The position numbers were made by a program, and so were the translations under genes. From a virus (lineage: Duplodnaviria > Heunggongvirae > Uroviricota > Caudoviricetes), in the IMG/VR virus record IMGVR_UViG_2778261031_000001, positions 1 to 9,116 of that record: a stretch of DNA of 9,116 nt, one strand, 5' to 3'. Under the pieces are notes generated by a model, which did not search any database, was not told where the DNA came from, and worked only from the letters and a program-made list of their open reading frames with translations. The first letter of the stretch is position 1; each line of letters begins with the position of its first letter. This document shows, in pieces, positions 1 through 4,420 of the stretch.

Positions 1-110
1 TGCTTCCATCGGAAACGATGATCTGGCAGCCTGAGTTCACAGATAAAACACTCTCCAGGAAACCCGGGGCGGTTCAACTGTGTTGGCTTGCTGTAACTTG
101 CTTGTGTCAT
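1..110 (-). CDS. possible 5' end of a leftward early gene, partial (continues beyond window start)
   Basis: ATG at 110..108 (- strand) opens a frame with no stop through position 1 (MTQASYSKPTQLNRPGFPGECFICELRL...). It lies downstream of cro/nutR where cII or replication genes sit in lambdoid order. RBS is weak and the N-terminus does not resemble lambda CII. Confidence 0.25.
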   Translation of the reverse strand, partial: MTQASYSKPTQLNRPGFPGECFICELRLPDHRFRWK

Positions 111-148
111 TTCTTAATATTTCCAATAGTGAATAGTTAGTTGAAAGG

Positions 149-166: not shown

Positions 167-213
167 TGGCCTTGGTTGGTCAGATATTCTGGGATTCGCT
201 TTTCAGCGACGTA

Positions 214-241
214 GGACGAATGTCCGTTGTTACAAAGAGCG
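214..241 (-). promoter_or_regulatory. candidate nutR (boxA + boxB) directly after the cro stop
   Basis: - strand reads CGCTCTTTG (boxA-like, 241..233), TAACAAC, then GGACATTCGTCC hairpin (225..214), then TACGT. The same boxA-AACAAC-hairpin-TACGT layout recurs upstream of N at 2946..2973. Confidence 0.45.
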
Positions 242-248
242 GGGTTAC

Positions 249-476
249 TTATGCTGCCAAAAGGTTCTTTTTGCTTATTTCAAGCATTTCGCTTGCTTGA
301 TATTTGCCACCAGAAATCTCTTCGATTTTTGATGCATATTTCGTTTTCCCAAAAAACTCAGTCTTAGGGAGGAAGCCGTTTTTGAGCCACTTATAGACAG
401 CCCTTTCGCTAACTCCACAAGCCTTCGCAACTTCAGGGATGCCGACACCTTTAATCGGCTCATCAAGATTTTGCAT
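249..476 (-). CDS. cro: Cro-like HTH repressor (75 aa if started at 476; the ORF track start at 509 gives 86 aa)
   Basis: Small HTH protein (GIPEVAKACGVSERAVYKWL) divergent from the CI gene. ATG at 476 has SD AAGGA 7 nt upstream and leaves a 78-bp operator region; start at 509 would place the operator palindrome inside the coding sequence. Confidence 0.7.
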   Translation of the reverse strand: MQNLDEPIKGVGIPEVAKACGVSERAVYKWLKNGFLPKTEFFGKTKYASKIEEISGGKYQASEMLEISKKNLLAA

Positions 477-554: not shown

Positions 555-1262
555 ATGGTTCAGAATGAAAAAGTGCGCAAAGAATTCGCCCAGCGGCTAG
601 CGCAAGCCTGTAAAGAAGCTGGTCTTGATGAACATGGTAGGGGAATGGCCATAGCCCGCGCCCTTTCTCTTTCGTCCAAAGGCGTTAGCAAATGGTTTAA
701 CGCTGAGTCTTTACCACGTCAGGAAAAAATGAATGCGCTTGCGAAATTTCTAAACGTTGATGTTGTGTGGCTTCAGCACGGCACTTCGTTAAATGGAGCG
801 AATGATGAAGATACTCTTTCATTTGTTGGCAAATTAAAAAAAGGGTTAGTGCGCGTGGTTGGTGAGGCAATTCTTGGTGTTGATGGTGCCATCGAGATGA
901 CCGAAGAGCGCGATGGGTGGCTCAAGATTTATAGCGATGATCCAGATGCCTTTGGTCTTCGTGTGAAAGGAGACAGCATGTGGCCCAGAATAAAATCAGG
1001 AGAATATGTACTCATTGAGCCTAACACCAAAGTATTCCCGGGTGATGAGGTGTTTGTCAGAACCGTTGAAGGACACAACATGATCAAAGTTCTTGGCTAT
1101 GACAGAGACGGAGAATACCAGTTTACAAGCATCAACCAGGACCATAGGCCAATAACGTTGCCTTATCATCAAGTAGCAAAGGTGGAGTATGTAGCTGGTA
1201 TTCTGAAGCAATCTCGCCATCTGGATGACATCGAGGCAAGGGAGTGGCTGAAAAGTTCGTGA
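555..1262 (+). CDS. cI: CI-type prophage repressor: N-terminal HTH plus C-terminal LexA/S24 autopeptidase domain
   Basis: 235 aa. N-terminal HTH (GMAIARALSLSSKGVSKWFNAESLP); C-terminal GDSMWP serine motif with downstream lysine (HNMIKVLGY) typical of the S24 Ser-Lys dyad; divergent from cro with operators between. Confidence 0.9.
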   Translation: MVQNEKVRKEFAQRLAQACKEAGLDEHGRGMAIARALSLSSKGVSKWFNAESLPRQEKMNALAKFLNVDVVWLQHGTSLNGANDEDTLSFVGKLKKGLVRVVGEAILGVDGAIEMTEERDGWLKIYSDDPDAFGLRVKGDSMWPRIKSGEYVLIEPNTKVFPGDEVFVRTVEGHNMIKVLGYDRDGEYQFTSINQDHRPITLPYHQVAKVEYVAGILKQSRHLDDIEAREWLKSS

Positions 1263-1359: not shown

Positions 1360-1902
1360 GTGGCTAAAAAAGGCGACTTTAAGCCTACCCAGAAAGAGGT
1401 TGAACAAGCTATTACTCGCTTGAAAAAAGTAACTTTTAGCGGAGTTACATGGACCGGAAGTGAGGGACGAACCCCAATCTGGTTTAAATTGGATCTCAAA
1501 GCTTTTGATGAAATTGGCAACCCAATCACAGGCATAAGATTTATGCTTCACTGGCGTCCTCCTATCGTTGAAGGGGTGGATATAGTGAAGATTTCATTTG
1601 TGATGTTTCTTCATGACAGGCGCATTTACGCGCTTGACCCGTACCCTGCGGATAACAAGCCACACCGTAATAAATCTATAGTGAACCATCCAGATTTTGT
1701 TGAGGTGGCTCGAGGTCCTCACTATCACATGTACTTCGAATCAGCTGGGGAAGAAATTGCACTTAAGCTTGAAACGAACATCAAGCCAGATGATTTTTTT
1801 GGCTACTGGAATTATTTTTGCGAGGCGCTTAATATCATATATGAAGGCAGCCCACCTTTACCTAATCAAGATAAATCAGGTCAGCTATCATGGGAAATGT
1901 AA
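1360..1902 (+). CDS. uncharacterized protein A (180 aa), first gene of the cassette at the rexAB-equivalent position
   Basis: ORF begins with GTG at 1360 (GGTGA 9 nt upstream); same strand as cI. No transmembrane segment, no recognisable catalytic motif apart from a His-rich patch GPHYHMYFES. Appears lower in GC than the cI and Ea22-like genes. Confidence 0.7.
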   Translation: MAKKGDFKPTQKEVEQAITRLKKVTFSGVTWTGSEGRTPIWFKLDLKAFDEIGNPITGIRFMLHWRPPIVEGVDIVKISFVMFLHDRRIYALDPYPADNKPHRNKSIVNHPDFVEVARGPHYHMYFESAGEEIALKLETNIKPDDFFGYWNYFCEALNIIYEGSPPLPNQDKSGQLSWEM

Positions 1903-2666
1903 CGTGTTCAACAGTCATATCTAAGCTCGGGTTTGAATGCCACCCAATGAGCGACACGTTGCTGCGCGTTATTAGTCCCTTCACATACTACGATGATTGT
2001 GAGCAGATAAGTGTATTCGTTCAAGAGATGAGTGGTCAGTATAGGGTTACAGACTACTGCGATACATTGATGAATATTGAATCACGCGGCATCCACCTGA
2101 CTAAAAAGAAAATTGATCTGATCAGGTCATCACTCGCTTCGCAAGGAATTTCATTAAATGACTCTGGAGAGATATCTGCGTGGGCAGATGAGTCGTCCGT
2201 TGGACAGGTAACTGCAAATGTTATTCGTGGTGGGATTCTTGCATCCGCCCAAACTGCTGATTGGTATGCTGAGGTCAAAGACGATAAGTTCGAAAAATGT
2301 GTAATCAGTTACTTAAAATCAGCAGGGCTTGGGAAGCGACTAGCCTTAAAGGAAAAAGTGAAAGGTATTAGTGGGCATAACATTACTGTTCCGTTAACGC
2401 TAAGGAATGAGTCTCGACTAATACCACCAAAACGCGGGTTTACGGTAAGCCTTGCCAGCAGTAAGGGATGGAATACTGCCCACTCAACAGTTGGGAAGAT
2501 TGTTGACTTAAGTCAGGTCGTTCCTGACATAAACAATAGATTTGTAATAGTTGACAGCGATGGGTTAACACCTGAGCTACAGCAACTATCACTACTATTT
2601 AATGATACCGCACGAGTGTTGCCATTCCATACCAGAGACTCTTGGATTGAGTCTCTGGTAGCCTAG
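1890..2666 (+). CDS. uncharacterized protein B (258 aa; 239 aa if started at ATG 1947), second gene of the cassette
   Basis: ATG 1890 overlaps the stop of protein A (ATGGGAAATGTAA), suggesting translational coupling. Soluble, no family recognised. Followed directly by an intrinsic terminator. Confidence 0.7.
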   Translation: MGNVTCSTVISKLGFECHPMSDTLLRVISPFTYYDDCEQISVFVQEMSGQYRVTDYCDTLMNIESRGIHLTKKKIDLIRSSLASQGISLNDSGEISAWADESSVGQVTANVIRGGILASAQTADWYAEVKDDKFEKCVISYLKSAGLGKRLALKEKVKGISGHNITVPLTLRNESRLIPPKRGFTVSLASSKGWNTAHSTVGKIVDLSQVVPDINNRFVIVDSDGLTPELQQLSLLFNDTARVLPFHTRDSWIESLVA

Positions 2667-2856: not shown

Positions 2857-2893
2857 GTACCAATAGTTCTTGATAATGTCGAACTATTAGTTC
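2857..2893. promoter_or_regulatory. oL operators: two 13-bp sites of the same family as oR
   Basis: GTACCAATAGTTC (2857..2869, 1 mismatch) and GAACTATTAGTTC (2881..2893, perfect palindrome); centres 24 bp apart. Confidence 0.55.
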
Positions 2894-2898
2894 ATTAT
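2870..2898 (+). promoter_or_regulatory. candidate pL
   Basis: -35 TTGATA (2870..2875), 17-bp spacer containing the perfect operator palindrome, -10 CATTAT (2893..2898); correctly placed upstream of nutL and N. Confidence 0.5.
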
Positions 2899-2945
2899 TA
2901 TCGCCATCAGCAGGAAGCTGGAAGCCAAACGGAACAGACTGGCAG

Positions 2946-2973
2946 GCTCTTTAAACAACGTCGAACACTCGAC
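2946..2973 (+). promoter_or_regulatory. candidate nutL (boxA + boxB)
   Basis: GCTCTTTAAACAA (close to the rrn/lambdoid boxA consensus) followed by GTCGA-acac-TCGAC hairpin and TACGT, about 120 nt upstream of N. Confidence 0.5.
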
Positions 2974-3089
2974 TACGTGGCTGAAAAGCCAGATCACCCA
3001 ACCACATAAGCTGTGGGATGCAATGCCGAAGCAACCGTCTCAGGAGGGGCTTCGAGATTGCATCGCCAAAGTTTATTCGGGAGGAATCT

Positions 3090-3362
3090 ATGTCCAGAAA
3101 AACAGAATTTAAAGGAACCGCAGCTTCTCGCCGTAGAGCTCGTCGTGCAAATCTGCAAAGTCAGGAGGCGATCAGCTCCGACAAGCTACACAGGCCAACC
3201 CCTTCACGAGTGGTCTTGCAATGCAAGCGCAAACCAGCAATGAGAGCAGAAGTGATAACTCTGACAACGTTGACCAGAAAATATGAAGGTTCAACTTGTC
3301 TTCCGAACGTAGCCATTTACGCGGCAGGCTATCGGAAATCAAAACAACTGACGGCGAGATGA
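3090..3362 (+). CDS. N: N-type transcription antiterminator, P22 gp24-like (90 aa)
   Basis: Arg-rich N-terminal motif (TAASRRRARRANLQ); C-terminus LPNVAIYAAGYRKSKQLTAR closely resembles the P22 gp24 C-terminus as I recall it. Strong RBS GGGAGG 5 nt before ATG 3090. The track's 3018 start is an unsupported upstream extension. Confidence 0.85.
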   Translation: MSRKTEFKGTAASRRRARRANLQSQEAISSDKLHRPTPSRVVLQCKRKPAMRAEVITLTTLTRKYEGSTCLPNVAIYAAGYRKSKQLTAR

Positions 3363-3426
3363 CTTGTGTTGGTCGCCAGAAGCAACGCGGAAAATCAATT
3401 CCAGCTTATTACGATTGAGGTGAGCC

Positions 3427-4217: not shown

Positions 4218-4279
4218 ATATGCATACCAATAACGCTTCACTAGAGGCGTTTTCGTTATGTATAAATAAGGAGCACACC

Positions 4280-4420
4280 ATGCAATATGCCATTGCAGGG
4301 TGGCCTGTTGCTGGCTGCCCTTCCGAATCTTTACTTGAACGAATCACCCGTAAATTACGTGACGGATGGAAACGCCTTATCGACATACTTAATCAGCCAG
4401 GAGTTCCCAAAAATGGATAA
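4280..4420 (+). CDS. cIII: CIII (protease inhibitor protecting CII), 46 aa
   Basis: MQYAIAGWPVAGCPSESLLERITRKLRDGWKRLIDILNQPGVPKNG matches lambda CIII as I recall it, minus the last ~8 residues. Strong RBS AAGGAG 6 nt before ATG 4280; the track's 4220 start is an unsupported extension. Confidence 0.85.
   Translation: MQYAIAGWPVAGCPSESLLERITRKLRDGWKRLIDILNQPGVPKNG

Follow-up and report, generated by a model that had tools for sequence, protein, structure and literature searches.

A GAAA-loop boxB candidate behind a variable spacer hairpin in the putative nutL and nutR sites of a Shiga-toxin-phage-like prophage region

Results

The two sites described here appear to be genuine nutL and nutR antitermination signals of a lambdoid phage, and in both of them the true boxB would be a second hairpin, directly after TACG, with the same GAAA loop at each site. 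They lie in a window of 9,116 nucleotides (the whole stretch of DNA that was analysed), which by its gene content spans the immunity genes and early-left part of a prophage that is lambdoid and Shiga-toxin-phage-like (Table 1). The hairpins with the loops ACAC and AUUC, found between boxA and TACG, are on comparison with relatives most likely spacer hairpins that match the "reducer" stem-loop already described for phage H-19B. These sites are of the H-19B and VT2-Sakai kind, which has been annotated publicly and dissected experimentally, and they are therefore already known.

The plus strand of the window corresponds to the leftward direction of lambda. In DNA, the N region shares about 95% identity with VT2-Sakai and many Stx2 phages; no single phage record reaches a coverage of the window of at least 80%, and the window is therefore a mosaic. 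Compared with VT2-Sakai, the immunity region between nutL and nutR is a different mosaic, with 933W-like cro and cI plus two other genes, and no stx gene is present in the window. From its position, the PL-like promoter would drive transcription of nutL and N. The sequence-only reading had assigned the two sites to a P22-gp24-like N, and the C-terminus of this N does resemble P22 gp24: there is a Pfam N_peptide match (8e-32) and an identity of 49% to a P22-type N with the shared ending CLPNVA(I/L)YAAGYRKSKQLTAR. A search of PDB sequences with this N gave no match even at E<=10, and the scan of the window against Rfam at gathering thresholds gave no nut family, its sole match being Lambda_thermo at cIII. 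The N leader, outside the nut site, is itself strongly folded (segment 3000-3085 at -38.6 kcal/mol; 2905-3095 with z = -4.09), and its long hairpin recalls the RNase III-processed leader of lambda N.

Two observations concern the rest of this map. Two overlapping genes (1360..1902 and 1890..2666, +) occupy the position of lambda rexA and rexB, between cI and the terminator before PL; they match PHROG 2017 and 1960, of unknown function, with a weak match to DUF6978 and a match to DUF1828, and are a candidate for a prophage-encoded exclusion or defence pair. At the other end, after nutR and a tR1-like hairpin, an ORF at 1..121 (-) starts with MTQASYSK…, which is comparable with the start of relatives' cII-type proteins (MERTSYSK…), then loses this likeness and is cut off by the edge of the window; another mosaic joint may lie here.

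Table 1. Features assigned in the window, with the evidence for each; nut elements are predicted
Feature	Position	Strand	Evidence
Putative nutR boxB, UCGCU-GAAA-AGCGA	196..209	-	folds at -6.5 kcal/mol, z -2.9
Putative nutR spacer 3' flank, UACG	210..213	-	sequence; UACG precedes boxB in nutR sites from N-protein loci
Putative nutR spacer hairpin, GGAC-AUUC-GUCC	214..225	-	folds at -5.2 kcal/mol
Putative nutR spacer 5' flank, UAACAAC	226..232	-	sequence; related-site comparison
Putative nutR boxA, CGCTCTTTG	233..241	-	sequence; identical to VT2-Sakai 'putative N-utilization rightward' feature
cro stop codon	249-251	-	
cro	249..476	-	HTH and weak P22_Cro Pfam matches; PHROG 35 transcriptional repressor 9e-16; 94% DNA identity to 933W cro
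cI (S24 peptidase and HTH)	555..1262	+	domain matches
Two genes in rexAB position	1360..2666	+	Pfam and PHROG matches
PL-like promoter, TTGATA-17-CATTAT	2870..2898	+	consensus scan; homologous to VT2-Sakai AP000422 'putative major leftward promoter'
Putative nutL boxA, GCTCTTTAA	2946..2954	+	sequence; inside homologue of VT2-Sakai 'putative N-utilization leftward' feature; PL-to-boxA segment common to P22-type phages (L087)
Putative nutL spacer 5' flank, ACAAC	2955..2959	+	ACAAY near-invariant in 64 distinct related nut sites
Putative nutL spacer hairpin, GUCGA-ACAC-UCGAC	2960..2973	+	folds at -5.7 kcal/mol
Putative nutL spacer 3' flank, UACG	2974..2977	+	UACG directly before boxB in every nut site recovered via N-protein loci
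Putative nutL boxB, UGGCU-GAAA-AGCCA (stem 2978-2982/2987-2991, loop 2983-2986)	2978..2991	+	folds at -7.1 kcal/mol, z -3.4
Long hairpin in N leader, between nutL and N Shine-Dalgarno, outside nut site	3006..3076	+	folding
N antiterminator gene, 90 aa, arm KGTAASRRRARRANLQSQ, residues 1-25 MSRKTEFKGTAASRRRARRANLQSQ	3090..3362	+	Pfam PF25694 N_peptide 8e-32; PHROG 271 'anti-termination protein N-like' 1.4e-25
cIII thermometer, Rfam RF01804 Lambda_thermo	4267..4325	+	88.5 bits; overlaps start of cIII-like ORF 4280..4420

The same order of elements, namely boxA, AACAAC, a short hairpin and TACG, is read directly at 2946..2973 (+) and at 241..214 (-), and the loops of the two hairpins are ACAC and ATTC, as first described. 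The shared TACGT is also present, but just beyond the end that had been given to the arrangement, which was rightly taken for nutL and nutR but closed about 18 nt too early and missed the second hairpin. Both sites are where lambdoid nut sites are found: nutL lies between PL and N, about 50 nt past the -10 element of PL, and nutR lies just 3' of cro and before cII/tR1, its boxA beginning 8 nt past the cro stop codon. Each has, 5' of boxB, a boxA of the form YGCTCTT(T)A (GGCTCTTTAA at 2945-2954 (+) and CGCTCTTTG at 241-233 (-), to be compared with CGCTCTTA in lambda). Exactly two copies of the pattern GCTCTTT N1-2 AACAACG N10-14 CTACGTSGCTGAAAAGCS are present in the window, where 200 shuffles give an expectation of 0.00, and the pattern shared by nutL and nutR is not due to chance.

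The likeness of the two sites does not stop at TACG but runs 13 bases further (TSGCTGAAAAGCS; 2 matches against 0.01 expected), where it reads T(G/C)GCT-GAAA-AGC(C/G)A. This is the hairpin that we assign to boxB. Its stem has 5 bp and a U-A closing pair and differs between nutL and nutR by one pair only, a compensatory change from G:C to C:G; its loop is identical at 2978-2991 and 209-196, which is not the case for the ACAC and AUUC hairpins. With boxA held single-stranded, the structure with both hairpins is the minimum-energy fold of each site (-12.8 and -11.7 kcal/mol). Across relatives, the loop and the three loop-proximal boxB pairs are invariant within a class, and compensatory changes are seen in two of the five boxB pairs.

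Lambda and P22 boxB carry one of the pentaloops GAAAA, GAAGA or GACAA, which fold like GNRA with one base extruded. The loop found here is none of these, having only the 4 nt GAAA, and the boxB of the window is thus a tetraloop variant, a true GNRA tetraloop without a pentaloop. This fits the model of GNRA-fold recognition by the lambda N arginine-rich motif that Legault and colleagues are said to have put forward in 1998 (Cell). We know of no previous study of a GNRA-tetraloop boxB of this N class.

We then compared the boxB loop with the N arm in about 290 related loci, obtained by three N-based scans and a pattern scan that share some contigs. From IMG/VR, 80 loci were gathered for the 90-aa N type and 80 for the 127-aa H-19B-type N; GAAA was present at nutL and nutR in 77/77 loci of the former in which both sites were found, and GACAA at both in 76/76 such loci of the latter, the loci being heavily related and the independent events far fewer than these counts. 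Although nutR lies apart from N, across the mosaic immunity region, its loop follows N and not cro. The two main cro 3'-end classes occur with both N types, in all four combinations (23, 72, 50 and 4 loci), and the nutR loop follows N without exception. The window itself looks recombinant: its cro is 933W-like, yet the nutR behind it has GAAA, where 933W has GACAA.

The survey was also run in reverse, from the DNA pattern CTACGTSGCTGAAAAGCS to the N genes read downstream of it. The N genes found 3' of a GAAA boxB comprise over 30 arm variants with C-termini of several unrelated kinds, among them the lambda-like …GKSIPLI, and every N in this position carries G[ST][AS]A[SGA]RRR[AE][RQ]R[AS]xLQ[SN]. 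The window N has the N-terminal arginine-rich motif of a cognate N, and in the surveyed loci loop and arm class match perfectly. The GAAA loop goes with a lambda-like arm, RRR(A/E)RRAxLQ, and a spacer hairpin; the GACAA loop goes either with the H-19B-type arm GNSRSRRRERLKAKALANG and a spacer hairpin or with the P22-type arm GNAKTRRHERRRKLAIERD and a linear spacer without hairpin. Counted by hand from the alignment, the window arm matches that of lambda (DAQTRRRERRAEKQAQ) at 9/15 positions (A-x-[ST]-RRR-x-RRA-x-x-Q-x-Q), against 5/15 for the H-19B arm and 6/15 for the P22-type arm.

A scan of GTDB representative-genome contigs added 4 loci, of which one, L087 from Escherichia albertii, was used in the comparison. 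Two others, L085 and L088, are E. coli-phage-like contigs in a Segatella copri MAG (JAJXBQ01) with an N 96-99% identical to that of the window, and L086 is a contig of 394 bp from Xanthomonas pisi (NZ_JPLE01000327) with an N 40% identical to it; all three most likely result from mis-binning or contamination.

The ACAC and AUUC hairpins behave differently from boxB. Both fold alone, with z of about -3.5 (energies in Table 1). The sequence-only reading had made its case depend on their conservation in related phages, and this was found for position and pairing but not for sequence. In phages whose N proteins share 98% identity or more, the nutL spacer loop takes the forms CUC, ACAC, ACUC, AUC and GCAC. 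The nutR hairpin GGAC-AUUC-GUCC is also found in the nutR of H-19B and 933W, which have a different N arm and the boxB loop GACAA; being common to phages with different N arms and boxB loops, it therefore cannot carry N specificity.

The variation of this hairpin was followed in 64 distinct related sites, picked by TACG plus a perfect 5-bp boxB stem, so that TACG invariance and 100% boxB pairing are there by construction. In 64/64 of them the hairpin ends exactly at UACG, while by our own estimate chance alone would place a stem of 4 bp or more at a given position in about 11% of sequences. They comprise 11 spacer stems (GUCGA, GGAC, GGACA, GGACG, GGCGA, GGGC, GGUGA, GGUGAA, GAUUCA, GAUUCG and GAUUGC) and loops of 3-6 nt that are free in sequence. 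Changes on both sides are seen in 5/6 spacer-helix pairs, and moving the pair partners by 1-3 columns abolishes pairing and covariation; compensatory counts nevertheless overstate the independent events, the sequences being related and some contigs shared, and the number of distinct stem types is more robust. Hardly any variation is seen in the outermost G-C pair or in the flanks ACAAY and UACG, UACG being a selection criterion of this set. Unguided MAFFT put boxB loop classes and spacer stems out of register, and N-padded sequences of equal length, which MAFFT left unchanged, were used instead; this hand-padding fitted the alignment to the structure, and shuffle statistics lean towards structure accordingly.

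The window sites share the marks of a reducer site: a spacer dyad lies between boxA and boxB (2960-2973 and 225-214), natural variation indicates that its pairing matters and not its sequence (11 stems, loops of 3-6 nt), and the flanks ACAAY and UACG are conserved in all four site classes of window-type and H-19B-type phages. When loci with the 90-aa-type or the H-19B-type N were sampled regardless of their nut sequence, a hairpin was present in every nut site, whereas P22-type sites had none.

Comparison with known systems places the sites more exactly. In VT2-Sakai (AP000422), both homologous stretches, with both hairpins, are annotated in GenBank as putative nutL and nutR, and the nut sites of 933W are annotated likewise. 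Over the nut site, the nutR of VT2-Sakai and that of the window are identical; between the two nutL sites the spacer loop is the single difference, CUC in VT2-Sakai and ACAC in the window, with boxA, both flanks (ACAAC and UACG) and the GAAA boxB alike. H-19B and 933W present the same order, (boxA), ACAAY, spacer hairpin, UACG and boxB, the same nutR spacer hairpin (GGACAUUCGUCC) and an N that is 57-58% identical to that of the window, with an identical C-terminus. They differ in boxB, which is UCGCU-GACAA-AGCGA in 933W and GCGCU-GACAA-AGCGC in H-19B, a GACAA pentaloop with the arm GNSRSRRRERLKAKALANG against the GAAA tetraloop with the arm GTAASRRRARRANLQSQ in the window. Moreover, the nutL of H-19B has no recognisable boxA, whereas both sites of the window have a good one, and with these better matches the host-factor requirement may differ from the independence of NusB/S10 and of boxA that goes with sites of the H-19B type.

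The P22-type relative in E. albertii (L087) has a PL-to-boxA segment homologous to that of the window (…GGCAGGCTCTTTAA), the same N C-terminus and a boxB that also has a 5-bp stem and a U-A closing pair. In contrast to the window, its spacer is linear, of 11 nt and without hairpin, its boxB loop is the pentaloop GACAA and its arm is GNAKTRRHERRRKLAIERD. Of the arms compared, that of lambda N is the most similar to the window arm, and the top of lambda boxB, CU-GAAA(A)-AG with a U-A closing pair, is like that of the window (for example GCCCU-GAAAA-AGGGC). However, lambda has the pentaloops GAAAA and GAAGA, a spacer of 8-9 nt without hairpin and an N with Trp18, which is absent from the window N, and the C-terminal regions of the two proteins are unrelated. 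The view that the nut architecture of the window departs from those of lambda and P22 is upheld.

Discussion

The reading that we consider very probable is that the GAAA hairpin is bound by the arginine-rich helix of N, that boxA serves NusB/S10 and that the first hairpin is a structural element which shortens the spacer. In the nut RNA, boxA would come first, next a spacer (ACAAC, short hairpin, UACG) and last boxB. The helix SRRRARRANLQSQ, most like that of lambda (TRRRERRAEKQAQ), would contact the boxB loop and upper stem, with boxA as the site for NusB/S10. The spacer hairpin most likely acts as proposed for the H-19B reducer, its folding taking 12-14 nt off the linear path and its closure joining the conserved flanks ACAAC and UACG, and the 23-24 nt between boxA and boxB would then act like a P22-type spacer of about 10-11 nt. 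Measured from GCTCTTT(A/G), boxB lies at 24 nt in nutL and 23 nt in nutR, distances that become 10 and 11 nt with the hairpin closed; the spacer is 11 nt in the P22-type site and 8-9 nt in lambda. For this phage, N binding, the use of Nus factors and the reducer mechanism are all predicted from sequence and from the likeness to studied systems.

The idea of a reducer comes from H-19B. Neely and Friedman, in 2000 (Mol Microbiol 38:1074), reportedly found a dyad symmetry in the H-19B nut spacers, where breaking one arm is said to have inactivated the site and compensatory changes to have restored it, with deletion of the dyad having little effect; they are said to have given the stem-loop the name "reducer", as it joins the sequences on either side of it. 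Work from the Sen laboratory bears out part of this arrangement for the nutR of H-19B, where N plus NusA/NusG protect spacer and boxB and boxA stays unprotected (PMC3526286).

A further step would be to regard the GAAA-boxB sites as nut sites that are naturally "minimal": a lambda-like arginine-rich helix without Trp18 would read a GNRA tetraloop with no extruded base. In lambda, the NusA-dependent complex requires loop positions with which N binding can dispense; in the GAAA-boxB class, N and NusA would then have to come together on the RNA in another way, perhaps through the ACAAC/UACG junction that the spacer hairpin creates. We put this forward tentatively and regard it as possible rather than probable; if true, it would link tetraloop and reducer functionally. 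The GAAA-boxB class is widespread in IMG/VR, but this wider set was retrieved with a pattern that includes the TACG junction and cannot test a link between tetraloop and hairpin.

Another role for the spacer hairpin might be to bind, or to occlude, NusA and/or Rho: the nutR spacer overlaps a rut site, and folding could tune both Rho loading at tR1 and NusA recruitment. In H-19B nutR, N plus NusA/NusG protect the spacer and boxB and leave boxA unprotected, Rho alone protects the spacer too, and NusA and Rho cross-link there (PMC3526286). The near-invariant outermost G-C pair and flanks would also suit such a role. Against this, stem and loop are free to vary, with 11 stems observed, which makes it less likely that the hairpin itself is recognised by its sequence, and nutL has an equivalent hairpin with no obvious Rho terminator next to it. 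Deletion of the dyad, reportedly of little effect, also speaks against it. We therefore hold this role to be rather unlikely as the explanation of the hairpin, although it is possible alongside, and compatible with, the assignment of boxB and a spacer-shortening hairpin.

The folding analysis raised the question of a switch, in which boxA (GGCUCUUU / CGCUCUUU) would pair with the 3' arm of boxB (AAAAGCC / AAAAGCG) as an alternative, inactive nut fold. When the two 61-nt nut RNAs (2940..3000 (+) and 247..187 (-)) are folded without constraint, the minimum-energy structure of each does pair boxA in this way and encloses the spacer hairpin, and the first boxA base (G vs C) matches the difference between the boxB stems. 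However, the z of the whole site is only -1.8 and -1.7, and the gain over the two-hairpin fold is 0.2-2.1 kcal/mol. Furthermore, the AGGCTCTTTAA segment is also found in P22-type sites with a different boxB, and the apparent G/C covariation is therefore inherited and not co-evolved; TGCTCTTT variants occur with boxB unchanged, and local hairpins would be expected to form first during transcription. With a weak z, a small energy gain and no independent covariation, the switch was rejected as very unlikely.

It had been proposed that the ACAC and AUUC hairpins are themselves boxB, and that N reads 4-nt loops which are neither identical nor canonical, or else stem shape alone. They do occupy the same place after boxA, fold stably and keep their pairing. 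Yet their loops differ between nutL and nutR and vary in length and sequence among phages with nearly the same N (at least 98% identity), one of them, GGAC-AUUC-GUCC, serves phages with different N arms, and a canonical boxB whose loop is invariant and tracks N lies 4 nt downstream. The proposal is hardly tenable. Instead of non-identical boxB loops, nutL and nutR both have GAAA, invariant across relatives, and with this canonical boxB in place there is no need to redefine boxB or to suppose a non-canonical target of N.

Finally, the dyad at 2960-2973 was listed on the minus strand by a terminator scan and might be taken for an intrinsic terminator or a DNA-level protein-binding palindrome, a reading with next to no credibility, as its tail GTTGTTTAAA has no clean T run, the equivalent nutR hairpin has no T tail, directly downstream of 2973 there is no sign of a convergent gene on the minus strand, and the scan gave 6 terminator-like matches in the window against 4.1 expected by chance; the terminator was dismissed as such a chance match.

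The preferred reading, a spacer hairpin followed by a GAAA boxB, is of slight importance beyond correct annotation. Nut sites control N-dependent early transcription, which in Stx phages contributes to toxin expression. In phages of the H-19B/Sakai type, the first hairpin after boxA is not boxB, and annotation, automated or by eye, should look for ACAAY, a hairpin and UACG, followed by a GAAA or GACAA loop on a 5-bp stem. In addition, the survey adds a natural specificity table of N-arm class against boxB loop and many natural compensatory changes in spacer hairpins, both usable for studies of RNA recognition by arginine-rich motifs or of NusA recruitment.

Two minor observations from the survey may be recorded. 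One of the IMG/VR loci, L208 (IMGVR_UViG_2588253791_000003), has a tandem double nut-like site at about 1410..1515 (+). Its first site (TGCTCTTTCA-CAGTTTACG-GCGCUGAAAAAGCGC) lacks a spacer hairpin and carries a pentaloop of the lambda type, and its second, immediately after, has a spacer hairpin and a tetraloop (TGCTCTTTTCCAAAC-GGACACUCGUCC-UACG-UCGCUGAAAAGCGA); two N specificities might be served by this tandem, or it may have been left behind by recombination. In the window, a short out-of-frame ORF at 3359..3418 (+), MTCVGRQKQRGKSIPAYYD, overlaps the N stop codon (ATGA) and resembles the C-terminus of lambda N (…ITCSGRQKIKGKSIPLI). A matching remnant follows the P22-type N in E. albertii (L087 2560..2600), and some relatives' N proteins end in …RGKSIPAYYD, …KMKLGSKPLI or …GKSIPLI. 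The out-of-frame ORF has the look of a relic of exchange between the two N C-terminal modules, or of the point at which they are switched.
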